Below, piece after piece: positions 1,767-62,663 of a DNA stretch of 64,000 bases (positions are counted from its first letter, which is position 1; every line of letters begins with the position of its first letter). The translations under genes were made by a program, and so were the position numbers. The stretch is from a virus (lineage: Duplodnaviria > Heunggongvirae > Uroviricota > Caudoviricetes): IMG/VR virus record IMGVR_UViG_3300022555_000015, one strand, 5' to 3'. The notes under the pieces were generated by a model that was not told where the DNA came from, did not search any database, and was given only the letters and a program-made list of their open reading frames with translations.

Positions 1767-2417
1767 TCAGAAAGTATCATCCCATTCAGACTCATCCGGG
1801 TACCTCTTATCCAGTTCAGTATGTGGGGGCTGGAAGTGGAGCTTCACGTTGGGGTCAGGGAAGAACCTCAACCGTCTAACGATGTAAGCCAGTCGGTCTC
1901 TCTTGTCCTGCGGGATTTCAAGTTCATCCAGGAGCCAGCACCCTTCAAGCAGGAGCCTCTGGCTCTCCTCGTATTCTCGACGGGCACTTAGAAGGTCATA
2001 CCAGTACTTCATGCAGTTATTGGAGTGAATTCCACACCGATACCCGTCCTGGACTTGAGTCAGAGTCCCATAGAGGCACCCCATCTCTCCCATCTCTCCA
2101 TACTTACTATGGATGCAGACGGTTTCCCCTAGATCAATGGCAATCTGGTGTTCCGCTGCATACGGGGGATTGAGCATCTCCCCACGGGCAAGACAGGTTA
2201 CAATCCATGCAGCCCCGTCTTCATTGAGGATGTCCCAAACCTCATCCTCAAAGGCAATCTTGAAGCCGCTCACTTCCCACATCACCCTTACAACCCTGTT
2301 GGTATCAGGGTAGGTAACGGATATGAGGTTGTCCAGGGTTTGAACCTGGATGGCAGGGTCCAGGTTCGTGAGCTTTTTGGCCCAGCCCTGAACCATGCAG
2401 GAGTTGATGGGGTACAT
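1767..2417 (-). CDS. hypothetical protein (216 aa)
   Basis: ORF 1767..2591 trimmed to internal ATG at 2415-2417 (MYPINSCMVQGW..), 1 nt after the pilin stop; longer start would overlap pilin gene by 170 nt. Confidence 0.5.
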   Translation of the reverse strand: MYPINSCMVQGWAKKLTNLDPAIQVQTLDNLISVTYPDTNRVVRVMWEVSGFKIAFEDEVWDILNEDGAAWIVTCLARGEMLNPPYAAEHQIAIDLGETVCIHSKYGEMGEMGCLYGTLTQVQDGYRCGIHSNNCMKYWYDLLSARREYEESQRLLLEGCWLLDELEIPQDKRDRLAYIVRRLRFFPDPNVKLHFQPPHTELDKRYPDESEWDDTF

Positions 2418-2418
2418 G

Positions 2419-2802
2419 TTACTCCTGGTTGCGGTAACGCACCTGGGGGCTGGGGGTCTGGCATCCATGGTTTCGGTCCATGTACACCCATGCCGAGCAC
2501 TCGATGGCATCGGGAGAGACTTCACGGACGGTTCCGCTTGGAAGAGTCTCACTAGCTCCAATGGTACATCTGACGTACCCGTTCTGGTCACTGTCCACTC
2601 CCTGACAGAGAACTCGCACGTTGGTCCAGGTGGGGTGCATCGTCTGGACGTATTCTCGTGCCTGAGTTACGGCATGTTGCCGAACGGTATCCGAAGTGTT
2701 ACATCCCTTGACGAAACCACCCAGGACAACCGACGCAAGGATGCCGATGATCACAACCACGATCATCAACTCAACCAGAGTGAAACCATTCTGACGCTTC
2801 AT
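2419..2802 (-). CDS. type IV pilin / pseudopilin-like protein (prepilin-type N-terminal cleavage-methylation domain)
   Basis: N-terminus MKRQNG-FTLVELMIVVVIIGILASVVL is the canonical prepilin peptidase site (G|FTLxE + hydrophobic helix); promoter-like motif 2862-2877 upstream. Confidence 0.7.
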   Translation of the reverse strand: MKRQNGFTLVELMIVVVIIGILASVVLGGFVKGCNTSDTVRQHAVTQAREYVQTMHPTWTNVRVLCQGVDSDQNGYVRCTIGASETLPSGTVREVSPDAIECSAWVYMDRNHGCQTPSPQVRYRNQE

Positions 2803-2861
2803 AGATGTTCCTTTGTTTGGGGGCGTTGCCCCTCTTTGCTTCCCTTACCCTAGAGGACGGG

Positions 2862-2877
2862 AATCTTAACTTCAAAA
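2862..2877 (-). promoter_or_regulatory. conserved upstream motif, candidate promoter (serves pilin-like gene)
   Basis: AATCTTAACTTCAAAA on plus strand. Confidence 0.4.
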
Positions 2878-3123
2878 ATTGGTTGCTTCCCCGATTACCC
2901 TGACCATTTCGAACAGGTCCATGATGGGTTTCCCATCCTTGGAGACGTGGATGCACTCTCCCTGGTCCTTCCCCGGAACCAAGATGAGGGTGTAGGTTCT
3001 GCCAGTGCCACTCTCTGCCTGAAGCATCCGGTTGAGGGCCCTGAGTTTCTCGTTGACTTCAGGGCTATGCGTGGGGTTCTCACACCAATCAGTCATGGGG
3101 ACAACCTCTCCTGGAGAGTCCAT
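2872..3123 (-). CDS. hypothetical protein (83 aa), paralog of 3143..3406
   Basis: shared block LILVPGKDQGECIHVSKDGKPI vs LILVPPVDSQECIHVSVGGKPL. Confidence 0.5.
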   Translation of the reverse strand: MDSPGEVVPMTDWCENPTHSPEVNEKLRALNRMLQAESGTGRTYTLILVPGKDQGECIHVSKDGKPIMDLFEMVRVIGEATNF

Positions 3124-3142
3124 AGAATTTCATGTGTCTTGC

Positions 3143-3406
3143 TTATCGGTGAAGTACTTCGTTCACATAGTCCTTGATGGACAGGATGATACCGTACAGG
3201 GTGCCGTGCATGACGTTGAGGGGTTTGCCCCCTACGGAGACGTGAATGCACTCCTGGGAATCCACGGGTGGAACCAAGATCAGGACAAACTCATGGTGCC
3301 TGTCCCGCTCTTCTGCTACCAGTAGGTCATTCAGGTGAAGTAGCGCATGGTTGATCTCATCCGAGAACGTGGGGGAGTTGGTTTGGTTGATCTCGATTTT
3401 CAGCAT
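3143..3406 (-). CDS. hypothetical protein (87 aa), paralog of 2872..3123
   Basis: ORF 3143..3493 trimmed to Met MLKIEINQ.. at 3406 to avoid 85-nt overlap with ligase gene; paralog similarity. Confidence 0.45.
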   Translation of the reverse strand: MLKIEINQTNSPTFSDEINHALLHLNDLLVAEERDRHHEFVLILVPPVDSQECIHVSVGGKPLNVMHGTLYGIILSIKDYVNEVLHR

Positions 3407-3407
3407 T

Positions 3408-4646
3408 TTAGTGACCGTCCTTCTCACCGGCACGGCAGAGGTACTCATCACTGACGTACTTGAGGATCTTTCGGTAGGTGGAGCCGTCATCATCCACCAC
3501 TCGGGCTTCGGGCTCGGAGGTCACAACCACACCCTCTCGGACGTGGGTACCCCCAGGAACCGTAGTCTTGCCGTCTCGAAGTCCCATGACTACCTGGGCA
3601 TTGAAGGGGCCCCGGTAGAGCACAGGGACCGTTTCCACACCGAAGAGTTCTGCAATCTTCTGGATGACATCCCACGGTTGGAAAACGTGGTCAATCTCCA
3701 CGTCGAAGATGCGAACCTTCCGTTCACCATTGGCACACCCGTAGGTCAAGTCCTGGACCTTGGACCCGTAGATTTCACCATGAATGATGAAGTGCTCAGT
3801 GAAGGGCCACTTCCCGTTGTCATTCTGGAAGACCTCTCGGACCTTGGCCTCCGGGAAGTACTTCTGGCCCATCAAAGCGTACAAGGTAGTCCCATCCGGC
3901 TTCTTGGCCGTAGTGTGGGAGCCTACGATGTACTCCGGGGTGTCCTTGCCATCGAAGACCATGCCCACCCTGAAATTTGTCCCATGGATCTTCTCGGTGA
4001 GACGAATTGCCTCACCCTCCGTGAACCAAGACGGATGGTTCTTGGAGTTTTCGATGTCCGTGTAGTGGACGAAGCTTCCAGGAGACCTGACCATCTCACC
4101 CCTCATGTCCACGGGGACAGGGGGCTCATACCGCTCGATGTGCAGAGCATGGCAGATGAGAAGGCTCTCCAGGTCCACCTTGGTTTCGGCCAGGAGGATC
4201 TCCTGGGCAAATGGGTTATCCTTGTAGACTTCGGCCAGAACCGTCTTGGCATTCACTGAGGTATCTGCAAGGCAGTCCAGAAGACCCTTGGGGGCAGAGA
4301 TCACCAATCCCTGGCTGATCTGGCCCCGGAGCCGAACGGTCTTGACCCTGTGACCGGGCCTTCCGTCCGGGAACTTCTTGGTTGCCTTGAGGAATGCGAA
4401 CTCCGGGACCGCAGGGTCCAGGAGAGCGTCCAGGTGGATGTAGATGCCCTTGTAGACGGGAGGGTAGCCCTCTTCCAGAAGGTACTCCAGTTCCCCATCC
4501 ACTACAGACTGATGGGGAGAGCCCACCCAGTCGGAAGTACGCACCACACACTGCCAGCCCATGCCCTGAATTTTGGCAAGGCTCAGGGTGTCAGCGTTGG
4601 GGTGTTGGTCCAGGATGAACGTGACCTGTCGAGCAAGGATTTTCAT
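3408..4646 (-). CDS. ATP-dependent RNA ligase (Rnl2/Rnl5-like nucleotidyltransferase with N-terminal extension)
   Basis: covalent nucleotidyltransferase motifs EKIHGTNF (motif I, KxHGxN as in Rnl2/REL1 family), HGEIYG, REGVVVT (IV), ILKYV (V); start set to ATG 4644-4646 (MKILARQ..), 35 nt downstream of motif 4683-4698; ORF-track start 4808 lies upstream of that motif. Confidence 0.75.
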   Translation of the reverse strand: MKILARQVTFILDQHPNADTLSLAKIQGMGWQCVVRTSDWVGSPHQSVVDGELEYLLEEGYPPVYKGIYIHLDALLDPAVPEFAFLKATKKFPDGRPGHRVKTVRLRGQISQGLVISAPKGLLDCLADTSVNAKTVLAEVYKDNPFAQEILLAETKVDLESLLICHALHIERYEPPVPVDMRGEMVRSPGSFVHYTDIENSKNHPSWFTEGEAIRLTEKIHGTNFRVGMVFDGKDTPEYIVGSHTTAKKPDGTTLYALMGQKYFPEAKVREVFQNDNGKWPFTEHFIIHGEIYGSKVQDLTYGCANGERKVRIFDVEIDHVFQPWDVIQKIAELFGVETVPVLYRGPFNAQVVMGLRDGKTTVPGGTHVREGVVVTSEPEARVVDDDGSTYRKILKYVSDEYLCRAGEKDGH

Positions 4647-4682
4647 TTGGATTCTCCACCCTCTCTTACTCCGAGAGGGGAG

Positions 4683-4698
4683 AATCTTAACTGAAATC
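4683..4698 (-). promoter_or_regulatory. conserved upstream motif (gene orientation GATTTCAGTTAAGATT), candidate promoter
   Basis: AATCTTAACTGAAATC on plus strand; instance of ~20-copy motif. Confidence 0.45.
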
Positions 4699-4749
4699 TT
4701 CGATGTGGTGTGTAGTAGTTGTATGTGGGTAAGTTGTGTAGGGTGGGGT

Positions 4750-5175
4750 TTATTCCCCCTGTTCAATGATCCGCAAAGTCTTTCGTTCGATAGCACCCAG
4801 TTTGGCAAGTTTTGCCCAATCTACGTTATCCAGAGCATCCTGCATTTCTTCCATGATGCTCTCATTTTTCTTATATTCCTCTTGTACTTCTTCTTCTTCT
4901 CCAGTGAGGGAGAGGATCTGATCCTCTAGTTCAGTAATCTGCTCCTGGAGTTTTTCTTTCTTCTGATTGATGCCGCTGATCTTTGTTGAAAGCTCATCAT
5001 TCTCATTCTTGATATCTTGAATGCTACTTTCTGCTTCACTACTTGCGTCACTTGCTGCATCCTCAAAACTCTTGCCTTTGCTAGTTTTCAGGGTTGCAAG
5101 TAGAAGGATACGTTCCTTCGAACCCTTGGGGAGAGTAGATGCTAGACGGATGATCTTAGACCGTAGAATGTCCAT
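4750..5175 (-). CDS. coiled-coil acidic protein with N-terminal LRSKIIRLAS leader (leader-family member 1)
   Basis: ORF-track start at 5184 is GTG; ATG at 5173-5175 gives MDILRSKIIRLASTLPKG.. matching leader of 13558, 13931 and 61677 genes; strongly coiled-coil C-terminus (E/K/Q-rich). Confidence 0.5.
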   Translation of the reverse strand: MDILRSKIIRLASTLPKGSKERILLLATLKTSKGKSFEDAASDASSEAESSIQDIKNENDELSTKISGINQKKEKLQEQITELEDQILSLTGEEEEVQEEYKKNESIMEEMQDALDNVDWAKLAKLGAIERKTLRIIEQGE

Positions 5176-5217
5176 GTGCTTCACCTATTCCAGTGAAGCT
5201 ATAGACGATACAACGAA

Positions 5218-5634
5218 CTACTTGAAGGGGGCAACCTTCACTGACTTGCAAACCTTGAGTCTGCGGATAGCTCTCTTGACTGTAACGGTTTCCCGTTCAA
5301 GCTTTCTAAGCTGGGATGTGAGGTACCTCTGCATGTACTTCACGGCAGCTTCAGGAGTCGCTCGGAGATCCGAAAGCTTGCACCATGCGGAACCCAAGTC
5401 TGATTTGAAGACGAAGACCTTGAATGTGCCAATCTCATTGATGGTGCCAACAATCTCTCTTACAGTGATGGAGTTCCCACGAATACGGTAAACCACATAC
5501 TTCTTCAAGAGCTTGGTGACAGTGGTAGTCGGTAAAGACTTCCCACCGTCAATGAGTTTGAATGCCGTCTTATCTTCCTTATCCTGAATGTCCTTCACGA
5601 CCTTCAGGTGCCGTTCTTTGGGGGTATCTGTCAT
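5218..5634 (-). CDS. hypothetical protein (138 aa)
   Basis: ORF track, basic protein, operon packing. Confidence 0.5.
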   Translation of the reverse strand: MTDTPKERHLKVVKDIQDKEDKTAFKLIDGGKSLPTTTVTKLLKKYVVYRIRGNSITVREIVGTINEIGTFKVFVFKSDLGSAWCKLSDLRATPEAAVKYMQRYLTSQLRKLERETVTVKRAIRRLKVCKSVKVAPFK

Positions 5635-5828
5635 TTCACTCTCACAACAAAGTAGGGATCGAGACTATAAACCCTGGTGAGTTTCTTCCAGTCCCAACCC
5701 TCCTTGTTGACAATACAGCATTCATCTTCGTCACTATCAACTACGGTAATCTTGTGCTCCGTCACGGGTCCTGATTCGGTCTCAACCGTGTCAGTGTAGA
5801 TCAGCACCCTTGGGCTACGGTTCTCCAT
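5631..5828 (-). CDS. hypothetical protein (65 aa)
   Basis: ATGA overlaps both neighbours. Confidence 0.4.
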   Translation of the reverse strand: MENRSPRVLIYTDTVETESGPVTEHKITVVDSDEDECCIVNKEGWDWKKLTRVYSLDPYFVVRVK

Positions 5829-6043
5829 CAGCCTTCTCCAGAGATGCTTGTTTCAAACGTAAGGGTCAGGTGTGTAGCTCTCGACAACCGGGTGATGTCC
5901 TTGAGAAGCCACTTATGTTCCTTGAGGATCTTAGCTTCATCCTCATCCCCTAGAGCTAGGATAATCGTGAACTCGTTCCCATCACGAATCTCTCCCATGA
6001 GATTTCGTTTGTGGACTATAACCCTGGGCTCATTGGGCTTCAA
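5828..6043 (-). CDS. hypothetical protein (71 aa)
   Basis: ORF track. Confidence 0.45.
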   Translation of the reverse strand: MKPNEPRVIVHKRNLMGEIRDGNEFTIILALGDEDEAKILKEHKWLLKDITRLSRATHLTLTFETSISGEG

Positions 6044-6272
6044 CGATATGCCCCTTTGTGAAGTGAAACTCGTAAGAGATCACCCTACCCAGGTTGCTTG
6101 GGATGGGGGGTCCAAGCCATACCTCAGTACCATCTGGAAATGTACCCATGAGCTTGTCCCAGGTACCCCCTCTGAGAGGGGACCCATGACTTACTAGGGT
6201 GCCTTCTTCCAGATGCCGACGAAGGTGGTAGAGGGAACCTACCAGCCAATCAGACATTCTTCCGGTATTCAT
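6030..6272 (-). CDS. hypothetical protein (80 aa)
   Basis: ATG 6270-6272 preceded by GAGG RBS that directly abuts the 3' end of the intron-containing tRNA. Confidence 0.45.
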   Translation of the reverse strand: MNTGRMSDWLVGSLYHLRRHLEEGTLVSHGSPLRGGTWDKLMGTFPDGTEVWLGPPIPSNLGRVISYEFHFTKGHIVEAQ

Positions 6273-6282
6273 ATTCCTCTAG

Positions 6283-6564
6283 TAGGCCCTCCGGGACTTG
6301 AACCCGGAACCTTTCGATTATCGTCCCACTCCTTGTTTCCAAGGCCGGTTTCCCGTTGTGGGCTGGACTATATCTTCACCATCTCAGGTGTACTGGTATC
6401 TAGTCTCTACGGTGCCCCACCTTTCGGCAGGTTCCCTCGGTGTTGTCTTCGGCATGACCCGTTCAGGTTTTCACCGATATCCCAGTATCCACTCACAAAG
6501 TTCCTATTCCCTTGTGAGGCTCTAATGAAAAAGTCGAAGGCTCTGACCATTGAGCTAAGGGCCT
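6283..6564 (-). tRNA. tRNA gene interrupted by a ~209-nt group I intron in the anticodon loop (exon1 6531-6564, intron 6322-6530, exon2 6283-6321); anticodon probably UAU (Ile) if splice is U34|A35 after omega-G, UUU (Lys) not excluded
   Basis: exons give AGGCCCT-TA-GCTC-AATGGTCA-GAGC-C-TTCGA-CTT / ATAA-TCGAA-AGGTT-CCGGG-TTCAAGT-CCCGG-AGGGCCT-A with perfect acceptor, D, anticodon and T stems; intervening sequence carries group I R-like GTAGAGACTAGATACC and the canonical S element AAGATATAGTCC (P7 GACTA/TAGTC). Confidence 0.7.
6322..6530 (-). ncRNA. group I (IC3-like) self-splicing intron within tRNA
   Basis: AAGATATAGTCC S element and GACTA/TAGTC P7 pairing; inserted after wobble U34 like bacterial tRNA-Leu(UAA) introns. 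Confidence 0.6.
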
Positions 6565-6836: not shown

Positions 6837-6911
6837 TGGTGGGCCGTGCAAGATTTGAACTTGCGACCTCCTCCGTGTAAGAGAGGCAATCTGCCGCTGA
6901 TATAACGGCCC
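6837..6911 (-). tRNA. tRNA-Val (anticodon UAC), CCA encoded
   Basis: GGGCCGT..ACGGCCC acceptor, anticodon stem CCTCT/GGAGG with loop CTTACAC, T arm GCAAG-TTCAAAT-CTTGC, then ACCA; D stem only 3 bp. Confidence 0.6.
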
Positions 6912-10460: not shown

Positions 10461-10504
10461 GAGATGTACCTTTTGATGGCTGTTACCCGGACTATGGCCG
10501 GTTG

Positions 10505-10577
10505 CGTTCCCATGGGGAATCGGACCCCAAACTTACGGATTTGAAATCCGCTGCTCTGCCAATTGAGCTATGGGAAC
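10505..10577 (-). tRNA. tRNA-Trp-like with anticodon UCA (reads UGA; opal suppressor or code-4-type tRNA-Trp)
   Basis: GTTCCCA-TA-GCTC-AATTGGCA-GAGC-A-GCGGA-TTTCAAA-TCCGT-AAGTT-TGGGG-TCCGATT-CCCCA-TGGGAAC-G; D arm near-identical to bacterial tRNA-Trp (TAGCTCAATTGGCAGAGCA); loop UUUCAAA gives U33 and anticodon UCA. Confidence 0.65.
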
Positions 10578-10611: not shown

Positions 10612-11088
10612 TTAACTCGCTTTCTTGGTTACCCGTTGATTTTTTGGGGCACGGTGCATGTGTTGGGTTTTGGCATGAGCACTGACGGTTCCCTTGACGG
10701 ACCCTGCCGCTGGAGAAAGGAAAGCCAAGATCACTCCGTCCACCACTCGACGGACAACCGCATTCCTCTTGTCCAGGGAACCCAGATACCTCATGGATTG
10801 GAGACACTTGATGAGGTCTCGGAACGGGACTGGGGACTTTCCAGGGATCTGAAGCTGGTAAGGGGGTGAGCCATCCCTAGGGTGGGGTGGCGGGGGAATG
10901 AATACAGGCTTCGTCGGGTTAGGACTCACCTTGGAGCGGTCATTCCCGAACTTGGGACCCCGCACCTGGGGCTGATTCTGGGGCTTTGGATGAACCTTAG
11001 CCTTGGGCTGAACCTTGGTCTTAGCCTTTGGCCGAACTTTAACCTTGGGCTGAACCTTGGATTTACGGGCCGGAAGCTTCTTGGTCAT
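10612..11088 (-). CDS. lysine-rich histone H1-like basic protein (KVQPKVKVRPKAKTKVQPKAKVHPKP repeats)
   Basis: ORF trimmed to ATG 11086-11088 (MTKKLPARKSK..) downstream of variant motif 11104-11116; tandem nucleotide repeats cttgggctgaacctt at 10960-11060. Confidence 0.55.
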   Translation of the reverse strand: MTKKLPARKSKVQPKVKVRPKAKTKVQPKAKVHPKPQNQPQVRGPKFGNDRSKVSPNPTKPVFIPPPPHPRDGSPPYQLQIPGKSPVPFRDLIKCLQSMRYLGSLDKRNAVVRRVVDGVILAFLSPAAGSVKGTVSAHAKTQHMHRAPKNQRVTKKAS

Positions 11089-11103
11089 GTGAGGGATATT
11101 ACC

Positions 11104-11116
11104 CCTAACCTGAATT
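11104..11116 (-). promoter_or_regulatory. variant upstream motif (gene orientation AATTCAGGTTAGG)
   Basis: CCTAACCTGAATT on plus strand 16 nt upstream of ATG 11088. Confidence 0.3.
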
Positions 11117-11132
11117 ATTGTCCAAGTTTGAA

Positions 11133-11453
11133 TCACTGGACAAGGTGAAGCTTCTGGACCAGATTCTTTGCGGAAGGGCAGGGTGCCAGGACAAGGGCCG
11201 TAGCATGGGCTTCCATGTCAGGCTCTCGGAAGATCGAACAGGGGATGTCCCGACCTTCGGCCCTCTCCCGAAGGAAAAGAAGGTGCTCTTCGTCCCGGAC
11301 GTGGAGGATTGCCAGGGTGTTGGACTCCTTCCTCCACTTGGAGAACTCCGCAGGGTGCCAGTACTCAAACTCATGCACTGCATGGATGGATTGAGAAATC
11401 TGTGCTCCCGGAGTGAGGTCTGCCCTGACCAGGACGAAGAGCTTCTCAGCCAT
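11133..11453 (-). CDS. peptidyl-tRNA hydrolase PTH2-like protein
   Basis: FVLVRADLTPGAQISQSIHAV matches the PTH2 N-terminal VxRxDLxMxxGKxxAQxxHA motif. Confidence 0.55.
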   Translation of the reverse strand: MAEKLFVLVRADLTPGAQISQSIHAVHEFEYWHPAEFSKWRKESNTLAILHVRDEEHLLFLRERAEGRDIPCSIFREPDMEAHATALVLAPCPSAKNLVQKLHLVQ

Positions 11454-11917
11454 TAGGCCACCTGTGCAGCCCGTTCCGCCTGAATCCGTGCCACGTACTC
11501 GACTCTGCGAGCGGCACGGAGCTCCTTGGCCTTGGCCTCTGCCGTCTCCCGCTTGACCCTGTGGGTCTCGGGCTCGGGTTCTGCCATCCAGGCATTGATG
11601 GTCTCTGCCGTGGCAGGCTTCCCGTGGATCGTGGAAAGGCCAGCGATGGCCTTCACGAACTCGGTGTAGGAGTGCCCGTAGTACTTGAAGAGATCGTGGG
11701 ACTTGGGCTCCATCACACGGTAGGGGATGCCCCGGATGAAGCCCAGGGTGAGCAGGGCCGCACGGTCCCTTCCAGAGAAGTACCTGGGCACACCCTGGAG
11801 GCTAAACAGGTAGCTTCCAAAGGTGGGACCCCCTGCCTTGAGAGCAGCCTTAAGGGGCTTGATGGTTTCGTTGAGGGTGGACTGGTTGCTGGACTGAGCG
11901 GTTTGTTCGATGGTCAT
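11453..11917 (-). CDS. hypothetical protein (154 aa)
   Basis: ORF track; motif 11972-11987 upstream. Confidence 0.5.
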   Translation of the reverse strand: MTIEQTAQSSNQSTLNETIKPLKAALKAGGPTFGSYLFSLQGVPRYFSGRDRAALLTLGFIRGIPYRVMEPKSHDLFKYYGHSYTEFVKAIAGLSTIHGKPATAETINAWMAEPEPETHRVKRETAEAKAKELRAARRVEYVARIQAERAAQVA

Positions 11918-27605: not shown

Positions 27606-27942
27606 TTGCCTTGTGCCTACGAAGGGCAGCGGCTACATGGTGTCCCTCATCTGTCAGCTTGTAGACACGGTTGAGACTAGTACCCGTGTTAATCAGGAGA
27701 CCCACTGCTTCGGCATCCTCAAGGCAAGACCAATCATCGTGATTAGGAACTTCCCCCTCACGAAGACGAGTAGGGTATGTCCTTCCCGAACTACCCTCAT
27801 GTGCTAGAAGCGGGTGGAGCTTGGGATCACACCGCATGTGATGGTTGTCAGGGATGCCCTTGAAGTCTACGATTCGGATTTCAATGTACCCGAAAGTAGA
27901 CCAGTGATCTCGGCCCCAGTCATAGATTGGAATGTTCATCAC
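27556..27942 (-). CDS. hypothetical protein (128 aa)
   Basis: ORF track. Confidence 0.45.
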   Translation of the reverse strand: MMNIPIYDWGRDHWSTFGYIEIRIVDFKGIPDNHHMRCDPKLHPLLAHEGSSGRTYPTRLREGEVPNHDDWSCLEDAEAVGLLINTGTSLNRVYKLTDEGHHVAAALRRHKANGGSFATFTLEASRDA

Positions 27943-27961
27943 TAACCCCTTGTAGGGTTAG

Positions 27962-28318
27962 TTACTCCAATGCCCGCATGATCTTGGCTACCAGGGCAGG
28001 AAATTGGTTCAGGTCTACGCCTTCCCTGAACTTCTCAAAAGCCCCACAGTAGGCTCGACCGTCGAGAACGGAGACCTGAACACCTGGAAGTCTATTCCAG
28101 AAGTACCGTGTGACGTAGGATTCTTGGAGAGTATCGTAGGAAGTACTGGCACGGTCTGGGGGTACACCCCCCTGGACGAAGAACATCTGTGCCCTACAGG
28201 GCCGAAGGTACAGGTTCACAGTTCCTCGACGGACACCACCTGAATGTTGGTATCCTTGAGACGGTCTTTCATGGATTCCACGGCTTCCCGTGGGCCATCC
28301 TTGTGCCAGATTCGGCAA
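27962..28318 (-). CDS. hypothetical protein (118 aa)
   Basis: ORF track. Confidence 0.45.
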   Translation of the reverse strand: MPNLAQGWPTGSRGIHERPSQGYQHSGGVRRGTVNLYLRPCRAQMFFVQGGVPPDRASTSYDTLQESYVTRYFWNRLPGVQVSVLDGRAYCGAFEKFREGVDLNQFPALVAKIMRALE

Positions 28319-28671
28319 GACAGGTGGTAGTCAATGAAATTGTGGATAAGCTCCAGGAGGTCAAGGATAGGCTTCTCCAATTCCTTGATCCCTTCAGCAT
28401 CCCTACGTTCAGAGCTAACACTGGAACTCTTGACAATAACAAACAAGAACTCCAACCCTAAAACCTCTGCGTTCGTAGGATCTGAGAAGTAGGCAACCTT
28501 CACGGCTACAGACCTACCATCCCTGGGATTGCTTGCTGGAATTTCGGCTGGTGGCTTAGTGATAAGCCCTTCAATTCTCTTCATCTTTGAAGATAGAAGG
28601 GAGTACCCCCCTACAACCACTAGGCTGTAAAGGATACCAGCAATAACTAGAACAATGAGGTATGGGGGCAT
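28216..28671 (-). CDS. membrane-anchored protein (151 aa)
   Basis: N-terminal TM MPPYLIVLVIAGILYSLVVVGGYSLL. Confidence 0.45.
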   Translation of the reverse strand: MPPYLIVLVIAGILYSLVVVGGYSLLSSKMKRIEGLITKPPAEIPASNPRDGRSVAVKVAYFSDPTNAEVLGLEFLFVIVKSSSVSSERRDAEGIKELEKPILDLLELIHNFIDYHLSCRIWHKDGPREAVESMKDRLKDTNIQVVSVEEL

Positions 28672-28723
28672 GGGCTACTCCTACTAGTACCTTAGCCCAG
28701 GTATAGGCAAATGTGTAGTAGAA

Positions 28724-29293
28724 TCAACCCCCTTGGGGCCGTCTTCCATAGATGGTCCGACGCTGTGCCGGGGGCTTGACACCAGGGTCAGGGGTGTAGG
28801 ACTTGGGGCCTCCTGCATTGTTCTCTCTCAGAGCCCCAATCATAATGTAGGCAATCTTGGACCACTCCCCACCGAACTCCCGAAGGGCATCCAGGAATCG
28901 GAATCGAGTGTCATCCAGGTAGTCCTGGGGGTACTCGATGGGAGCATTGGGATCTTCCGTAGCGAACTCATCGAGGTCGAAAGATGCCGTGTTGACGGAG
29001 CCATCCTGATTGAATACCGGGCCCTTGCTCCGGTAATGGATCTTGGCTCCCGCAGGGTCACTGTCATCAATGCAGAGCACCCAGCGCCCACGCTCCGTGT
29101 ATTCAATGAACACGGGACAGTCAGGGATGTCAATGACACCTGCAAGGCTGATCAGCTTGTTGAAAGCATGAGCCTTGGTGAAGTCAGACCGGGGACCCTG
29201 ACGGGGCCTTCCACGTTCCTGATAGGCACCAGGAGTGCTTGCGTTGGTACCAGCATTGCCGTAGTTGTCATCTGTTTCGTCATGGTCAGTCAT
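28724..29293 (-). CDS. hypothetical protein (189 aa)
   Basis: ORF track. Confidence 0.5.
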   Translation of the reverse strand: MTDHDETDDNYGNAGTNASTPGAYQERGRPRQGPRSDFTKAHAFNKLISLAGVIDIPDCPVFIEYTERGRWVLCIDDSDPAGAKIHYRSKGPVFNQDGSVNTASFDLDEFATEDPNAPIEYPQDYLDDTRFRFLDALREFGGEWSKIAYIMIGALRENNAGGPKSYTPDPGVKPPAQRRTIYGRRPQGG

Positions 29294-29649
29294 TGCGATA
29301 CTCCATTGTCAGGTTCATTTTCAAGTAAGGTTGCAATCTCATTCCAACGTCCCCCCAGGAGCTTCAGTGCTTCCAGAAGGGAAAAGTGAGTCTGTTCTGA
29401 GTCACCGGAATAATCAAACGTCCCGATGACCTTATTACCCTCATGCAAGGGACCACAAGCCTTATTGTAATAACCTCTAGGCTCCTCATACAGAGTGTAT
29501 TCGGAATCTGAATAGGCTGAGATCACCCAGTAACCTTCAGGTCTCTTACGGAGGGTGACATTCAAGTACTTTCCCGTCTGAAAGTCCCTGAACTCCCCAA
29601 CGATGTCAAGTCTGGTGGTGACTTTCAGGAATGCCAGTAGAGGGTTCAC
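29290..29649 (-). CDS. hypothetical protein (119 aa)
   Basis: ATGA overlap. Confidence 0.5.
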   Translation of the reverse strand: MNPLLAFLKVTTRLDIVGEFRDFQTGKYLNVTLRKRPEGYWVISAYSDSEYTLYEEPRGYYNKACGPLHEGNKVIGTFDYSGDSEQTHFSLLEALKLLGGRWNEIATLLENEPDNGVSQ

Positions 29650-33713: not shown

Positions 33714-35027
33714 TCAGTCCTCACCCTTGATGACGGCAACGGGCTTGAGCTTCAACGTGACGGCTGCAAGACCCGCCATCTCAACCGTATCCAGGACGGC
33801 ATCCAGGTTCTTGTAACAGGGCCCCGACTCATCGAGGGGGATTTCACGGGTATTCACGAGGATGTCGAGTTCCTCCATCCTCCGATTGATGTACTCCTGG
33901 TCAAGCTTCTTCTTGGCCTGATTCCGACCCAGCCTTCGGCCCGCACCATGATTGACAGAGTAGGCAGACTCCTTGGCCCCAGCCAGGGGAAAGAGCACCG
34001 CAGCCCCTTCCTCCATAGACCCAGGGATCAAGATGGGGTGACCCGTCTCTTCCCACTTGGAGCCCATCAGGAGAGGGTGCTGTCCAGGGAATGCTCTGGT
34101 GGCACCCTTCCGATGAACGAACCGATCACCCTCCCGCTGAATGAGATTGTGGGAAATCTCATAGTAGAGTTCGGCCGTGCCACCGAAGACACTCTTGAGA
34201 GCCCCAATGACTTCCTTTGCAATCACCAGTCGGTTAGCGATTGCAAAGTTTGCTGCCCTGTTGTGATCATTCCAATAGAGCTTGCCGAGCTCGGAGTCAG
34301 CCTCCATGCACACCAAGTCCTCATCCTTCTTGGCAAGGCCCTGGGCAATGCACCCTCGGGAGAAGTAGTGCTGTGCCGTGACATAGCCCAGACCCCTGGA
34401 CCCCGTGTGGAGCATGATCCATACTTTGTCGTCATCTCCTACCTGCATCTCACAGAAATGGTTTCCTGACCCAAGAGATCCAAGTTGATTCCCCTTCATC
34501 ATTGCCATAGGAAGGGGGGGTGCCAAGTCAGGATCAACGGGAAGGCAATCTCTTTCAGAGTTCCCCCTGGACTCACCAAAAGCCAAGGCACCCCTATTGA
34601 TAATGTCAATGAGATCCTCTTTGGATATATCCTGAGAGCCTGCATGACCGAGACCAACACCAATGCGACTCTCTACCTTCTTCATCCAACGACGACGTAG
34701 GTCTTTGCTCTTAACATCTTCCCTTGTTAGAGATGTGCTGATTAAAACCATACCGCAAGATATGTCATACCCTGCTGCTGTAGGCAAAAGAGTACCTTCG
34801 GTTTCAATTACACAACCAATAGGTACACCGTAACCTGTGTGTACATCAGGTGTAATAACTACCTTCTTGACTCCTGGCAGTCCAGCGGCTCTTTCAATCT
34901 GAGCCCAGGCATTCTCTTCTGATGCCTGAAAGAGAAGATCACTGAGAAAGACACTCACTGGACAGGGGAGTCCCTCGACAACCCAATGTCCCTCAGAAAC
35001 CTTCGTTGCTCTGTCCTTGAGACTCAT
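33714..35027 (-). CDS. rtcB: RtcB-family 3'-phosphate/2',3'-cyclic phosphate RNA ligase
   Basis: ITPDVHTGYGVPIG, GSGNHFCEMQ, LHTGSRGLG, VNHGAGR: hallmark metal and GTP-binding motifs of RtcB. Confidence 0.8.
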   Translation of the reverse strand: MSLKDRATKVSEGHWVVEGLPCPVSVFLSDLLFQASEENAWAQIERAAGLPGVKKVVITPDVHTGYGVPIGCVIETEGTLLPTAAGYDISCGMVLISTSLTREDVKSKDLRRRWMKKVESRIGVGLGHAGSQDISKEDLIDIINRGALAFGESRGNSERDCLPVDPDLAPPLPMAMMKGNQLGSLGSGNHFCEMQVGDDDKVWIMLHTGSRGLGYVTAQHYFSRGCIAQGLAKKDEDLVCMEADSELGKLYWNDHNRAANFAIANRLVIAKEVIGALKSVFGGTAELYYEISHNLIQREGDRFVHRKGATRAFPGQHPLLMGSKWEETGHPILIPGSMEEGAAVLFPLAGAKESAYSVNHGAGRRLGRNQAKKKLDQEYINRRMEELDILVNTREIPLDESGPCYKNLDAVLDTVEMAGLAAVTLKLKPVAVIKGED

Positions 35028-36252: not shown

Positions 36253-36746
36253 TTCTTGGGTTCTACAGGTTCCTCGGAGACCCTTCGAACGGCACCCAAC
36301 ATCTGTCCCATCCTACGTCCAGGGAGTCTCTTGGACATGGGAACACAGGGTTCAGAGTCTCTCGGCTTCTGGGGGTTCTCACCTTCTGGATTTGAAGGCT
36401 CATTGGGCAGAACACCTACGGGACCTGGACGGGAAACAACTTCACTCAAGAAAGACAGGGGAGGGAGGCTATCCAGAGATTTCAGTACGGACTGAGGAAA
36501 TCCATAGGCTTCCCTGAAGCCCTTCTTTTGTCTCTCAATGAACTCCTTGCGTTCCTTGTACTCTTCGGAGTCTGAATCTACGAAGTGGTGCCCGCAAGAC
36601 AGGCAGGCATGTGTTGGGTCTTCTGCATGTTCTAGTGAACTCCCCAGGACAGCCTCTCCACGTATGACTTTCGCCCAAGAGGTTTGCGACAGTCTACTAT
36701 AGAGGACAGGGATGTTCTTTTCACTCTCACAAATGGGACATTTCAT
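36249..36746 (-). CDS. zinc-ribbon protein (165 aa)
   Basis: MKCPICES..CLSCGHH. Confidence 0.45.
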   Translation of the reverse strand: MKCPICESEKNIPVLYSRLSQTSWAKVIRGEAVLGSSLEHAEDPTHACLSCGHHFVDSDSEEYKERKEFIERQKKGFREAYGFPQSVLKSLDSLPPLSFLSEVVSRPGPVGVLPNEPSNPEGENPQKPRDSEPCVPMSKRLPGRRMGQMLGAVRRVSEEPVEPKK

Positions 36747-37771
36747 GTCTTCACCGTGCGGTACAGTTCCATATCCATCACTTGAAGTGTATCAAACAAT
36801 TCCAAACCGGGTAGGAATTGAATCAGGGCTTCCAGGCCGAAGAAGGCACCCAGGAAGGCTCCTGCTACGGCTGCTCTGGAGTCAGTGTCACCACCACCCA
36901 TGATAGCAACCTCATAGGTTCCTCTGGCAACACCATCAGCGTGTTCCAATACATTGTCCCCGGCCATCTTCAATCGAGACAGGAAACAATAGAAAGCCAT
37001 GGGGACCAGTTCCCACACCTTGCCTGAGTTCCCCAGGATTGTGTAAGCTTCCTTCCAATAGAGACTTTTCTCCAGCATTAGCTGGACAAGTCGTAGACCC
37101 TTGAAGGTCATTGTGTCCTTATAGCCATGCTCTTCCAGTGTCTTGATGACGGAAGAAAGCATGATATCGTAGGGCACAGTTCCTTTAGGCATCTTCCGGC
37201 AGTAATAGGTCATCAGAGCTACGGCAATGGACCCAGCCCTACCTTCGGGATGTTTGTGAGTCAGGTTGGCATCGAGTTCAGCAAACTGAAGGATATTCTC
37301 CTTGTCATAGACAACCCCAAGGGGGGCTACCCTCATAGCAGAACCACAACCAATGATATCTCCTACCTTGAAGTCCCTACTGGCAGTTCTCCAATTTCCC
37401 AGATCACTGACAAGCTTGTCCATGGCATAGCGGACGGTACTCCCCGTCCCTCTACAGGCACCACTAGGCCCCTTGCCCTGATACCAGTTCCGGTAAGCTT
37501 CGGCTACAACCACGGGGTTGTAAGCATGATGGCTGATGATGCACTGGGCGAGAGCCAGGGTCATCTGTGTGTCATCTGTCCAGGCACCGGCTTTTAGACC
37601 CGCTTCCCCTAGGTTCTTGAACCCACCAGAGAGATAGGTATGTCCATCCCAGTTTACCAGGGGAGGGTACTCTGCATCCTTGTTCTCAAAGGTTTTGCCT
37701 AGGGCATCCCCAATAGCAGTTCCGAGAACAACGTAAGGAACTACACCGTTCATTAGTCCAGGGCTCCCCAT
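36743..37771 (-). CDS. ADP-ribosylglycohydrolase (ARH/DraG family)
   Basis: GTAIGDALG...WTDDTQMTLALA and GGDTDSRAAVAGAFLGA: both Mg-binding motifs of ARH fold. Confidence 0.7.
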   Translation of the reverse strand: MGSPGLMNGVVPYVVLGTAIGDALGKTFENKDAEYPPLVNWDGHTYLSGGFKNLGEAGLKAGAWTDDTQMTLALAQCIISHHAYNPVVVAEAYRNWYQGKGPSGACRGTGSTVRYAMDKLVSDLGNWRTASRDFKVGDIIGCGSAMRVAPLGVVYDKENILQFAELDANLTHKHPEGRAGSIAVALMTYYCRKMPKGTVPYDIMLSSVIKTLEEHGYKDTMTFKGLRLVQLMLEKSLYWKEAYTILGNSGKVWELVPMAFYCFLSRLKMAGDNVLEHADGVARGTYEVAIMGGGDTDSRAAVAGAFLGAFFGLEALIQFLPGLELFDTLQVMDMELYRTVKT

Positions 37772-38738: not shown

Positions 38739-39182
38739 TTATTCCTCTACTTCCGGTGCTTCCGGGAAGTAGCGGTTGATGAAGGATACCATTCGCTCCC
38801 GACCTACGGGGTTCATGGAATGAACTTCGGGCTTAGTCTTGGGCCAGAGGTCTCGGTCTGCCATTTCCTTCAGGAGCCAGTAGCCATCATGGTTACAGGA
38901 CTGAGTCTTATCTTTCAGACAGTCTGCACAGATGCCCAGATCATGGTCCATACTTATCTCATTGACTTGGTAAGTCAGGAGATAGGAGAGTGCTTCCCGT
39001 GCATTCTTGGCCCAATACCAACCTTCAGGGGCAGGACGTTCATCGTCCAACCACAGGTTGTAGGGTGCCTTGATAGACAGGGTGAGATAGGTCATCCCCC
39101 CAACACTCAGGATCATCAGGACAGAACCAACGATGATGACAGTAAGCATGGTATTTCCTAGGTGAATTCTCGTACCTTCCAA
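38739..39182 (-). CDS. membrane-anchored Cys-motif protein, paralog 3 of 3
   Basis: LWLDDERPA...GICADCLKDKTQSCNHDGYWLLKEM...WPKTKP. Confidence 0.5.
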   Translation of the reverse strand: MEGTRIHLGNTMLTVIIVGSVLMILSVGGMTYLTLSIKAPYNLWLDDERPAPEGWYWAKNAREALSYLLTYQVNEISMDHDLGICADCLKDKTQSCNHDGYWLLKEMADRDLWPKTKPEVHSMNPVGRERMVSFINRYFPEAPEVEE

Positions 39183-40114: not shown

Positions 40115-40491
40115 GGCATATCCTTGGGGGGCATACGAGAGGGGTACCAGCCGAAGATTCCGGTGTTTTCACAAACACAGAAGTAAGCACAGTTGTGTGC
40201 CCAGTTAGCTTCCGGTTCCAGGTCAATGAACCAGACGTGGACTTTATAGGACGGGCAGGTAGGCATCACGGGTCGGTACAAAGTATCAAGCAATGTATCG
40301 TGGGGAGAGGTAATCACCCCCAGGTCATGGACCATCGCTGGGGCAAGGGATGTCTGTGAGAGAGCGAGTAGGGTGTCAGCGAACGCTGCCCCAAACTTGA
40401 GCCTGAATTCTTGAAGGTCACTCATTTGTAAGTTCCAGAGTCCATTCCACCGATTGCAGGAGGTCATCCTTGGCAAAGCAGGACTTCTCAC
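40111..40491 (-). CDS. hypothetical protein (126 aa)
   Basis: ATGA overlap. Confidence 0.45.
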   Translation of the reverse strand: MRSPALPRMTSCNRWNGLWNLQMSDLQEFRLKFGAAFADTLLALSQTSLAPAMVHDLGVITSPHDTLLDTLYRPVMPTCPSYKVHVWFIDLEPEANWAHNCAYFCVCENTGIFGWYPSRMPPKDMP

Positions 40492-40806
40492 TGTTCCGGT
40501 ATCTCATACCAGCCGTATAGTCAGGACGAGGCACCCATGTAGAAGAGTGCATGATGACCGGGATAGTACGGAGAGAATCATCCTCGGCCATCTTGGAGAC
40601 CATCTCGGAGCCGGTCATGCCGGGCATCCGGTTGTCGGTCACCACCAAGTCAGGTCGCTCCGTTCGCATGTACTCCAGGGCATCCTCCCCGTTCATGGAC
40701 GTATTCACCCGGTAGCCAGCATCCCGGAACAGCTTGGAGTTCCTCTCCAGGACTTCCTCTCCAGGACTTCCACTTCATCATCCATCAGTAGAATCAAGGG
40801 GCTCAT
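40418..40806 (-). pseudogene. CheY-like response-regulator receiver domain gene disrupted by 14-bp tandem duplication (cctctccaggactt x2 at 40742-40769)
   Basis: ATG 40804-40806 gives MSPLILLMDDEVEVLER then frameshift; removing one 14-bp copy yields continuous MSPLILLMDDEVEVLERNSKLFRDAGYRVNTSMNGEDALEYMRTERPDLVVTDNRMPGMTGSEMVS...IPVIMHSS (DD pocket, phospho-Asp in VVTD, receiver fold). Confidence 0.6.
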
Positions 40807-45928: not shown

Positions 45929-46180
45929 CTAGCCTTTGGTCTCAGGCCGAATCTGGTAATGGGACTTGCCAAGTTCTATGATATCATCCCTTCCAGAGAG
46001 GATAGCTCTGATAATGTTACCGTCAGGGGGTGTGTTGATTCCAGCTAGCTTGGCAAACTCCTGTGCGAAGCCTGCATTGTTGAAGATGACACCGACAGAA
46101 TCCCCATTGTAGGCTCGGACAGCCCGTTCTATTGCGAGATGTACTAGGTCACTCATGGTTATCTTATCTGTGTGACACAA
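45929..46180 (-). CDS. hypothetical protein (83 aa)
   Basis: ORF track. Confidence 0.4.
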   Translation of the reverse strand: MCHTDKITMSDLVHLAIERAVRAYNGDSVGVIFNNAGFAQEFAKLAGINTPPDGNIIRAILSGRDDIIELGKSHYQIRPETKG

Positions 46181-46416
46181 TCACTAGTGTCAATCCCGAA
46201 CTGTTCTGCCATCTTGCAGATATCGTAGCAGATTGCCCGTGCGGTTACATGGACAGCAAGGTCACATTGACCTTGAACTACACTCCTGTTGGTATCAGGG
46301 GGCCCTGGGTTTCTCATGTAAGCCCTGGGGTTAGCTTCAACAGCCAAACGGTCAGCTAGCTTCGCAGCCGACTTGAGGGCTTCCTTGAGCTTGGCATTCT
46401 CTTCTAGTAGGTCCAC
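46159..46416 (-). CDS. coiled-coil protein (85 aa)
   Basis: ORF track. Confidence 0.4.
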   Translation of the reverse strand: MDLLEENAKLKEALKSAAKLADRLAVEANPRAYMRNPGPPDTNRSVVQGQCDLAVHVTARAICYDICKMAEQFGIDTSDCVTQIR

Positions 46417-46422
46417 ATTACC

Positions 46423-46773
46423 TCAGTAGGGCCGGTCGGTTGCTAGGTCAGGCTCGGGGTCGATAACGAACTGCCGAACAGGGATGGTCCGTTCCCCCTG
46501 GAGGATGGATTTAGCTACTCGATGATAGCCGTCCATGACTTCTCCCGTGCTGGAGACAATCACCGGGTACTGGAGTTCTGCATCCCTTGTCCGTGTTGGC
46601 TCATACGTCTTGAGCATCTCGACCATGAAGATCGACACACCCAGGGACCTCGGATCATGGTTAGTGATAGGTAGGTCGGCAGAGGCTAACCACAGAGTCT
46701 CATCCTTCCAGTAGTACCTCTTGGTGTCAAAATCCCGGAAGTAGGGAGAGAATAAGTTGGTCATTCCTGCCAC
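46423..46773 (-). CDS. ParB/Srx-like nuclease domain protein
   Basis: PVIVSSTGEVMDGYHRVAKSILQGERTIPV matches ParB N-terminal DGHHR box. Confidence 0.5.
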   Translation of the reverse strand: MAGMTNLFSPYFRDFDTKRYYWKDETLWLASADLPITNHDPRSLGVSIFMVEMLKTYEPTRTRDAELQYPVIVSSTGEVMDGYHRVAKSILQGERTIPVRQFVIDPEPDLATDRPY

Positions 46774-57234: not shown

Positions 57235-57674
57235 TGAAGACCCTCTGCCTATGCCTTTTGATGGGGTGTTCCCAGCTATCTCCTGAAGATCGGGAAGCAC
57301 CGGCACCTGTGCATATCCCTGTGCATACCTCACCGGCACCTAGCCCTGTCCCTGTCCCTGCATCACCGGCACCTGTACCTGCCACAACGGATATCACCAA
57401 CGCTCGGTCGGCTGCAATCCATGAGGTCTGGAACATCTCGCAGAGGTCTCCAGCCGCAGAACGGGGACAGATTGTAGTGACGTGCAGGGCAGTTACAGCG
57501 ATGAATGCCATCTGCACGGCTAACTACCTCCAACTCCCCACCCTGAGAATGGAGTGCGAGAACGGCCCCTACCCTTACAACGGTGGGTGCGTGATTCTGG
57601 GGGATGCCAACCCTCCAACGGATGAACTCACGGCATGGGACCGACACTTCATCCCAGGTTTGATCGTTCACTAG
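57234..57674 (+). CDS. lipoprotein with Pro-rich linker, paralog of 58480..58887
   Basis: MKTLCLCLLMGCS lipobox; LRMECENGPYPYNGGCVILGD vs LTLMCHNGPYPYNHGCVIPLY. Confidence 0.5.
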   Translation: MKTLCLCLLMGCSQLSPEDREAPAPVHIPVHTSPAPSPVPVPASPAPVPATTDITNARSAAIHEVWNISQRSPAAERGQIVVTCRAVTAMNAICTANYLQLPTLRMECENGPYPYNGGCVILGDANPPTDELTAWDRHFIPGLIVH

Positions 57675-57682
57675 AGGTAACT

Positions 57683-62354: not shown

Positions 62355-62663
62355 TCAAGGTCTCCTGGACCTCTCCTTACGCCTATCCGTCGAGACCTTA
62401 CCCCCGGTTTGTTTGGAGATGAACTTCACGGTCTTGACAAACGTGGGGTGGGCTAAGAGAGCCTCAACCGTATTGTATTCGGCTTCAAGCTCCCGATTGC
62501 TGAACGTCGCATGGATAGCTCTGTGGCAGTCTGTACAGATAGGGAGTGTGTCCTTCCCACCCCGGCTACGGGGGACTAGGTGGTGGTCACTGAGCCGAAG
62601 CCACGGGTAGGCACGGTCACATAGGGGGCACTGTGGGATAATCTGATCTGGGTAGCACGGCAT
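62355..62663 (-). CDS. HNH endonuclease
   Basis: CPLCDR...DHHLVPRSRGG...CTDCHRAIH (HNH with flanking CxxC zinc knuckles). Confidence 0.65.
   Translation of the reverse strand: MPCYPDQIIPQCPLCDRAYPWLRLSDHHLVPRSRGGKDTLPICTDCHRAIHATFSNRELEAEYNTVEALLAHPTFVKTVKFISKQTGGKVSTDRRKERSRRP

Follow-up and report, generated by a model that had tools for sequence, protein, structure and literature searches.

The tRNA gene at 10505–10577 of the IMG/VR virus record IMGVR_UViG_3300022555_000015 (a stretch of phage DNA of 64,000 nucleotides (nt), referred to at its full length as the window) carries the anticodon UCA, which pairs with the stop codon UGA, and lies on the same strand as a gene for a Pth2-like peptidyl-tRNA hydrolase. 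This arrangement is the opal version of a conserved large-phage cassette, in which the anticodon of the tRNA is mostly CUA, sometimes UCA and once UUA. The tRNA is built on a tryptophan-type scaffold and the DNA around it is in the standard genetic code. We favour, tentatively, the reading that it is a functional, tryptophan-inserting UGA suppressor, derived from tRNA-Trp by a C34 to U change, within a cassette whose hydrolase clears the side products of suppression. Phage suppressor tRNAs are already known; what appears to be new is their linkage to the Pth2-like protein and to relatives of a second protein of the window, p154, which is not mentioned in the literature searched.

A tryptophan-type tRNA with a UCA anticodon

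The tRNA gene is recovered by two methods. ARAGORN calls a tRNA with anticodon tca at 10504–10577 on the minus strand, one of only two tRNA genes that it finds in the window (the other is a tRNA-Val(UAC) at 6837–6911, also minus), and the Rfam model RF00005 matches 10505–10577 on that strand over model positions 1–71 of 71 with 66.8 bits, against a gathering score of 29 (E = 2e-12). The 5′ part of the RNA reads GUUCCCA UA GCUC AAUUGGCA GAGC A GCGGA UUUCAAA UCCGU and is followed by the 3′ part, AAGUU UGGGG UCCGAUU CCCCA UGGGAAC G. These 73 nt form an acceptor stem of 7 bp, a D stem of 4 bp with the loop AAUUGGCA, an anticodon stem of 5 bp, a variable loop of 5 nt and a T stem of 5 bp, and end in the discriminator G73, while the anticodon loop UUUCAAA corresponds to U32 U33 U34 C35 A36 A37 A38. 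The free-energy fold of the RNA on its own is likewise a cloverleaf (−31.2 kcal/mol, z = −5.1 against shuffles). A preliminary description of this DNA, which gave no strand, had proposed a standard cloverleaf with U33 and the triplet UCA at positions 34–36, and both proposals are borne out, the second by ARAGORN and the Rfam alignment alike. Scans for promoters, terminators and inverted repeats around the gene revealed nothing specific.

The 201 nt around the tRNA, flanks included, are identical in an independent Joint Genome Institute (JGI) assembly, 3300025162, and public assemblies contain the neighbouring gene in 46 indexed blocks, which excludes an assembly error. The tRNA(UCA) gene is real and fixed in a widespread phage population.

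The relationship to tRNA-Trp is most evident in a 25-nt stretch that comprises the D-loop GG, the 3′ half of the D stem and the anticodon stem-loop and is identical to tRNA-Trp(CCA) but for C34, which is U; the Trp-like character ascribed earlier to the D arm is thus upheld and extended. The 25-mer GGCAGAGCAGCGGATTYCAAATCCG gave 122 matches among the bacterial genome loci listed, every one of them with C34. The same stretch is shared, position 34 excepted, with the tRNA-Trp(CCA) of Vibrio phages BA6 and KIT05, six of its seven matches in IMG/VR are tRNA-Trp(CCA), and the annotated blastn matches of the tRNA in GenBank phages are mostly tRNA-Trp. G73 is invariant across ten aligned Trp-type tRNAs, this one included. 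A host assignment from such similarity (Planctomycetota, Vibrionaceae and Halieaceae, among the matches listed) was rejected as unreliable, the acceptor and T arms being different.

The features by which bacterial tryptophanyl-tRNA synthetase (TrpRS) recognizes its substrate are G73, the main element of the acceptor end, together with C35 and A36. The anticodon here is UCA and not the CCA of tRNA-Trp, with C35 and A36 kept and C34 replaced by U. The run A36-A37-A38 fits an i6A37 modification, which is typical of tRNAs that read codons starting with U. Since G73, C35, A36 and the A36-A37-A38 motif are all kept, charging with tryptophan by the host enzyme is most likely. The first base pair is G1–C72, where the bacterial tRNA-Trp examples have A1–U72, a minor identity element in Escherichia coli; G1–C72 is also found in several phage tRNA-Trp(CCA) genes. 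According to work cited in a passage of Borges et al. (10.1101/2021.08.26.457843), UCA derivatives of tRNA-Trp are charged with tryptophan in E. coli.

ARAGORN names the gene 'SeC', a label that derives from the anticodon alone, and a selenocysteine tRNA would share with it only UCA and G73. Bacterial tRNA-Sec has an 8/5 architecture, a D stem of 6 bp and a long extra arm, and measures about 90–100 nt, whereas the window tRNA has a 7/5 architecture, 73 nt, a D stem of 4 bp and a variable loop of 5 nt; in addition, selA, selB and selD are absent from the Pfam tables of the inspected regions. The 7/5 architecture and the short variable loop exclude this identity, for which we see practically no room.

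Tryptophan-type tRNAs with this anticodon are rare among viral contigs compared with the CCA form. The combination of a Trp-type D arm with the anticodon-loop motif TTCAAA occurs in eight viral contigs, in seven of which ARAGORN calls a UCA tRNA, against at least 120 viral contigs with the CCA version of the same pattern. The other Trp-like tRNA(UCA) with G73, in locus L011, stands in a standard-code DNA-modification region without any recoding signal; the genes at 2139–6125 of that locus are for thymidine hypermodification (an amino acid:DNA transferase, a 5-hmdU DNA kinase and a thymidylate-synthase-like protein).

Linkage of stop-codon tRNAs to a Pth2-like hydrolase

We define the cassette as a gene of the Pth2 family that lies no more than 4 kb from, and on the same strand as, a tRNA with the anticodon CUA, UCA or UUA (hereafter a stop-codon tRNA). 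In the window its genes form a single operon on the minus strand.

10505–10577, minus strand: tRNA(UCA), with Trp-type scaffold, G73, A36-A37-A38, C55 in the T loop and no encoded CCA
10612–11136, minus strand: p174, an open reading frame (ORF) of 174 amino acids (aa), from the ORF list and called as a gene in public assemblies
11133–11453, minus strand: Pth2-like peptidyl-tRNA hydrolase of 106 aa (Pfam PF01981, 34.2 bits against a cut-off of 23)
11453–11917, minus strand: p154, a protein of 154 aa, translationally coupled to the Pth2-like gene

Two of the other viral contigs with a Trp-like tRNA(UCA) also encode a homologue of the Pth2-like protein next to that tRNA, and a scan of IMG/VR for the family with a three-sequence alignment returned 21 loci, mostly on contigs of 100–512 kb and with a G+C content (GC) of 0.32–0.65. 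A stop-codon tRNA lies within 4 kb of the hydrolase gene in all 21 loci (19 CUA, 2 UCA), on its strand in 20 of them and typically some 0.5 kb away (median); 13 of the loci contain tRNAs of no other kind, and Rfam/Infernal places a tRNA at the same coordinates in 20 of the 21. By comparison, stop-codon anticodons occur in 3 of 126 control loci, which were tRNA-rich loci around tRNA-Trp(CCA) with a total of 1.09 Mb and 742 tRNAs (3/742 tRNAs; Fisher p = 1e-22), and the Pth2-like hydrolase in none of the 126. Some of the loci are closely related, so that the number of independent lineages is nearer 15 than 21. The bodies of the cassette tRNAs are unrelated, being Trp-like, Gln-like or, in one case, equipped with a long extra arm, and their common feature is the stop-codon anticodon; a physiological link is therefore favoured over recognition of one particular tRNA body by the hydrolase.

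The cassette is also present in GenBank phages, where the window protein as query retrieved 219 records with Pth2-like homologues and the protein of locus L142 a further 37. Seven of ten phages inspected have a stop-codon tRNA within 4 kb of the Pth2-like gene on the same strand:

Mycobacterium phage IkeLoa (Bixzunavirus): annotated 'tRNA-Pyl(cta)', 0.3 kb after an annotated 'peptidyl tRNA hydrolase'
Acinetobacter phage ME3: CUA, 0.4 kb from the Pth2-like gene
Salmonella phage Arash: CUA, 1 kb from the Pth2-like gene
Cronobacter phage GAP32: annotated 'Sup-tRNA' (cta by ARAGORN), 2.8 kb from the Pth2-like gene
Tenacibaculum phage pT24: annotated 'tRNA-Sup' (cta by ARAGORN), 2.5 kb from the Pth2-like gene
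LR756500.1 (uncultured huge phage): CUA, 0.8 kb from the Pth2-like gene
LR745208.1 (uncultured huge phage of 485 kb; locus L299, 4405–4481): UUA (ochre), 0.1 kb downstream of the Pth2-like gene

The records of its cultured members carry conventional standard-code annotation, so the cassette does not mark genome recoding, and the ochre reader beside the hydrolase in LR745208.1 is hard to square with simple codon reassignment.

In the window, the stops and starts of p154, the Pth2-like gene and p174 overlap, the GTG start of p174 with the TGA stop of the Pth2-like gene (GTGA). The tRNA begins 35 nt past p174, and the Pth2-like gene ends 555 nt upstream of it. The 106-aa protein is a predicted peptidyl-tRNA hydrolase by homology to Pth2, and the profile of its family matches solved Pth2 structures (2zv3 at E = 4e-8). 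Relatives of p154 stand immediately upstream of the Pth2-like gene in loci L269–L273, and one stands directly upstream of the tRNA(UCA) in L011, a locus without the hydrolase; p154 is thus a third, less widespread component of the cassette. No Pfam, PHROG or PDB match was found for the p154 family, and its broad profile was too weakly conserved for scanning the collection; a narrower one matched two known loci only. For p174 there is neither a Pfam or PHROG match nor a relative in the other cassette loci. Single-sequence AlphaFold models of p154 and of the Pth2-like protein were unusable and were discarded (predicted local distance difference test, pLDDT, of 51 and 46, respectively).

Two observations concern the surroundings of the stop-codon tRNAs. 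tmRNA genes lie near them in several phage contigs that are unrelated to one another, L143 (5798–6324), L144 (353–862), L275 (1690–3174) and L290 (IkeLoa; 10253 onward), lending a ribosome-rescue flavour to the neighbourhood of the cassette. Beside some of the CUA tRNAs ARAGORN reports irregular anticodon loops, with a four-base 'gcaa' or a two-base 'ac' anticodon (L286/L287, 4522–4597; L282, 4905–4978), and these tRNAs may be of frameshift type or otherwise atypical.

A broader reading, which is possible but rather doubtful, is that the suppressor tRNAs of standard-code large phages, far from being relics or tools of a code change, make up with the Pth2-like hydrolase a dedicated two-part stop-codon device that spreads horizontally and gives the phage command of events at a chosen stop codon in the infected cell; the window tRNA(UCA) would be its opal form. 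Such a device, sometimes accompanied by a p154-like protein and a nearby tmRNA, could serve either regulated read-through or termination and rescue independent of release factors. The second of these roles, taken on its own as the function of the window cassette, is improbable. The tRNA would read the stop codon and the Pth2-like enzyme would free the peptide even where the host release factor is limiting or disabled, which would accord with the tight, ancient linkage of an enzyme hydrolysing the peptide-tRNA bond to tRNAs for all three stop codons and with the tmRNA genes in L143, L144, L275 and Bixzunavirus. The cognate stop also remains in use near the cassettes, as the terminator of 18% of nearby ORFs in the CUA loci (TAG) and of about 46% of those in the window (TGA), and the Pth2-like genes themselves do not avoid it, the window copy ending in TGA. 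However, the proposal is speculative, the substrate of known Pth2 enzymes is free and not ribosome-bound peptidyl-tRNA, the canonical Gly-Lys loop of these enzymes is lost in the cassette family, and the cassette tRNAs resemble ordinary chargeable elongators.

Genetic code of the genome and possible role of the tRNA

The phage is from freshwater (a humic lake) and the window is an accessory region of its genome, which measures at least 215 kb (the longest public contig with its genes has 215,642 bp); overlapping public contigs extend the window 77 kb leftward and 41 kb rightward. The genetic code was inspected over about 97 kb of this genome, from −15.9 kb to +81.3 kb relative to the window, the left flank to −15.9 kb being seen as a gene table, without DNA. 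These 97 kb tile densely in the standard code (code 11; public gene calls in the flanks) and include a 1130-aa SNF2 helicase and a putative peptidoglycan-binding lysin. TGA is a stop in both flanks and is the commonest stop in the window, at about 46% (44 of 95 ORFs with a positive coding score; 37 of 81 curated genes). Of the 44 TGA stops 19 fall in ATGA start/stop overlaps, the Pfam models of RtcB, the ADP-ribosylglycohydrolase and others are complete just before TGA, and coding scores are negative downstream of TGA stops. No in-frame TGA was found within genes of the window or the flanks. ORF lengths under codes 4 and 15 were uninformative, since they rise for any stop that is removed.

The earlier statement that the window is in the standard code therefore holds, and the suggestion that the tRNA adapts the phage to a code-4 host is excluded because TGA serves as a stop in the window and in its flanks. 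A role in rescuing host translation, also suggested there, is not supported. The recommended search for in-frame TGA under codes 11 and 4 came out negative over the 97 kb. In all, the observation made in the preliminary description stands, while its interpretation stands in part and missed the conserved Pth2-like cassette around the tRNA.

One candidate for TGA read-through within the window was rejected. At 46159–46773 on the minus strand, ORFs of 116 aa and 85 aa lie in one frame, separated by TGA and two codons (46423–46773 and 46159–46416); they are probably separate genes, since a GAGG motif precedes an in-frame GTG, although the presence of a UGA-reading tRNA makes a fusion product conceivable.

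The preliminary description had further raised the possibility of recoded late genes elsewhere in the genome, that is, a code switch in which UGA is reassigned to tryptophan for structural and lysis genes outside the window, the window being the standard-code part that carries the machinery of the change. We consider this unlikely. In its favour, there is a strong association of suppressor tRNAs with recoded phages, whose code-change operons keep to the standard code (Borges et al.), jumbo phages are published that can limit recoding to hallmark genes, and at least 118 kb of the genome lie beyond the inspected part. No clear or recognizable structural module was met in the inspected part. The inspected part nevertheless gives the proposal no support: it is dense in code 11, with TGA as the commonest stop of the window and a stop in both flanks, and genes for release factor 1 (RF1) and TrpRS, which accompany the suppressor in some recoded phages, are absent from the Pfam tables of the inspected regions. 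Recoding is reported to arise where GC is low and TGA rare, and neither precondition is present, GC being 52% (range 0.50–0.56). It also speaks against a code switch that the same cassette occurs in cultured phages annotated under the standard code and that no read-through targets were found for the suppressors of phage XacN1 (PMC5852040).

We return to a tryptophan-inserting suppressor in a hydrolase cassette. On this model the wobble base of a phage-borne tRNA-Trp derivative changed from C34 to U34, which would allow pairing with UGA and also, through U-G wobble, with UGG. The 3′ end would be completed by the host CCA-adding enzyme and the tRNA charged with tryptophan, most likely by host TrpRS; it would then compete with release factor 2 and place tryptophan at a fraction of UGA stops. 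Ribosomes that read through may reach untranslatable sequence, stall and drop off, leaving tRNAs locked up as peptidyl-tRNA, and the hydrolase may have been co-selected to free them, so that suppression stays affordable. Candidate benefits to the phage are extended protein isoforms, the buffering of nonsense mutations in a very large genome, and disturbance of host termination.

Several observations weigh against this model. The tRNA is standard in its cloverleaf but not throughout, and two departures had been overlooked in the preliminary description. Position 55 is normally an invariant U (pseudouridine), and the T loop begins U54-C55-C56 in place of the textbook U54-U55, with T55 in all nine Trp-type tRNAs compared; the 3′ CCA is not encoded, the gene running on into GCAA. 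Both could lower the activity of the tRNA. On the side of the hydrolase, solved Pth2 enzymes possess a Gly-Lys loop that the family lacks, and in place of their Asp-Ala-Gly the family has Glu-Pro-Asp, so that its activity is not assured. The linkage has exceptions in both directions, as phages XacN1, RaK2 and RAS14 have the hydrolase but no stop-codon tRNA within 4 kb, and the three control loci hold stop-codon tRNAs without the hydrolase. The cost to the phage may also be considerable: TGA ends about 46% of its genes, that of the Pth2-like protein included, nearby back-up stops after TGA are not enriched, and the median number of codons to the next stop is 22 after TGA, as compared with 8 after TAA and 19.5 after TAG. 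An efficient suppressor would therefore extend many phage proteins. Finally, the 118 kb or more beyond the inspected part count here as well.

C55 and the absent CCA, together with the single transition that separates the gene from a normal tRNA-Trp, would also fit a functionless tRNA-Trp copy with C34 changed to T that is heading for loss. This is very unlikely, given the intact stems and the high Rfam score, the identity of the gene across independent samples and the conservation of the cassette context over GC of 0.32–0.65. In addition, C55 is found in 3 of 29 distinct stop-codon tRNAs of cassettes (the window, T loop 10521–10527; L274, 4811–4886; L286/L287, 4772–4845) as compared with 4 of 742 control phage tRNAs (p = 0.0015), a recurrence that suggests a selected trait.

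The window also carries a cluster of RNA-repair and counter-defence genes, which suggests a host that attacks tRNA or uses cyclic-nucleotide signalling:

Among 3408–4808 (minus), 33714–35027 (minus), 36743–37771 (minus) and 57635–58483 (plus): RNA ligase (PHA02142-type), RtcB, ADP-ribosylglycohydrolase and Apyc1
L015, 1134–1820, just right of the window: AAA_33 (polynucleotide-kinase-like) gene

These genes raise the alternative of a nuclease-proof replacement for tRNA-Trp, in which the UCA variant escapes a host anticodon nuclease that recognizes CCA and reads UGG by wobble, UGA read-through being tolerated. Phage tRNAs that escape tRNA-targeting defences through changes in the anticodon loop are documented (PMC10264068), no ordinary tRNA-Trp(CCA) gene was found by ARAGORN in about 86 kb of genome DNA, and TGG makes up 1.85% of codons. 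Yet the documented escape variants keep their anticodon and phages avoid encoding tRNAs targeted at the anticodon (PMC10264068). The proposal also leaves the cassette unexplained, as the partners of the Pth2-like gene are CUA, UCA and UUA tRNAs on unrelated scaffolds that share the reading of stop codons and not of the tryptophan codon, and we regard it as having only a small chance of being correct. Ranked by weight, the alternatives to a functional suppressor in a hydrolase cassette are recoded late genes, a nuclease-proof tRNA-Trp, a termination or rescue device and, last, decay.

Other features of the window and of its relatives were observed alongside. No close relative of the phage was found among GenBank phages, the nearest by RNA ligase being LR745208.1 (50% identity), and a metagenome scan with the downstream 250-aa protein gave one 43%-identical relative with no tRNA nearby. 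A gene-free stretch by the tRNA-Val(UAC) gene (6296–6492; also 6342–6537, minus) has 81% DNA identity to LR745208.1, where the counterpart likewise adjoins a tRNA-Val(UAC), inside a large tRNA field. It gives a sub-threshold group I intron match in Rfam (22 bits against 50, E = 0.017) and may represent a conserved structured RNA. Several independent public assemblies break at the tRNA-Val gene (6839) and at about 28–29.6 kb (27797–29590), and the contigs found to carry the 102-aa gene at 62355–62663 are all below 10 kb in length; such places are suggestive of strain variation or of repeats. Apyc1 is an anti-Pycsar nuclease. The window genes also include a radical SAM enzyme, a glycosyltransferase/methyltransferase fusion and stand-alone receiver-domain proteins (Response_reg and cREC_REC, at about 38739–39182 and 40418–40708, both minus) beside an AAA_23/SMC_N-like ATPase.

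Comparison with known systems

The tRNA-Trp(UCA) of Mycoplasma, Spiroplasma and mitochondria (code 4) likewise carries U34 and reads UGA as well as UGG; in code-4 genomes, however, TGA is not a stop, whereas it ends nearly half of the genes here. The window tRNA also resembles the nuclease-evading phage tRNAs of van den Berg et al. (PMC10264068) in that it differs in the anticodon loop and that its genome encodes tRNA-repair enzymes. It differs from them in that the change affects the anticodon itself, so that decoding would be altered, and in that the cassette ties it to stop-codon readers and not to tRNA-Trp.

Closer in appearance are the recoded phages described by Borges et al. (Agate and Jade, TGA to Trp; crAss-like and Lak phages, TAG to Gln), with which this phage shares a phage-borne tRNA(UCA), presumed charging by host TrpRS and a standard-code stretch. 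Unlike in those phages, in-frame TGA is absent from the roughly 97 kb inspected, genes end most often in TGA, GC is 52% and neither RF1 nor TrpRS was seen. The Pth2-like partner sets it apart as well, as the term 'peptidyl-tRNA hydrolase' occurs 0 times in Borges et al. (10.1101/2021.08.26.457843). A phage tRNA(UCA) or tRNA(CUA) is consequently not always evidence of genome recoding.

Stop-codon tRNAs recur in jumbo phages of standard code, of which Atu_ph07 and XacN1 offer a nearer parallel. In Agrobacterium phage Atu_ph07 a UCA suppressor coexists with abundant use of UGA as a stop by both the phage and its host (PMC6102473), Xanthomonas phage XacN1 has two CUA suppressors (PMC5852040), and in both, as here, the cognate stop is in use; both papers list peptidyl-tRNA hydrolase genes and call the purpose of the stop-codon tRNAs unexplained. 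In contrast to the present analysis, they treat tRNA and hydrolase separately, and in XacN1 the Pth2-like domain does not lie within 4 kb of the suppressors. In the literature searched, with coverage mostly without subscription journals, no paper linking Pth2 or peptidyl-tRNA hydrolase to phage suppressor tRNAs was found. With the linkage described here, these unexplained stop-codon tRNAs become part of a defined unit of two, sometimes three, genes.

The same pair, 0.3–2.8 kb apart and on the same strand, is found in Bixzunavirus (cluster C, Bxz1, IkeLoa; Pth2-like protein of about 40% identity) and in phages ME3, Arash, GAP32 and pT24, in none of which a p154 relative was detected. The same hydrolase thus accompanies readers of all three stop codons, over GC of 0.32–0.65 and in hosts that include Mycobacterium, Acinetobacter, Salmonella and Tenacibaculum. 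The unit can be knocked out in cultured phages with existing genetic tools, for example in Bixzunavirus in M. smegmatis, and if the hydrolase makes strong suppression tolerable it could serve genetic-code-expansion work. The window tRNA stands alone, in contrast to the pair in Bixzunavirus and Arash, which is embedded in a large tRNA array, and while the tRNAs of the cultured phages read UAG and are built on other scaffolds, that of the window reads UGA.

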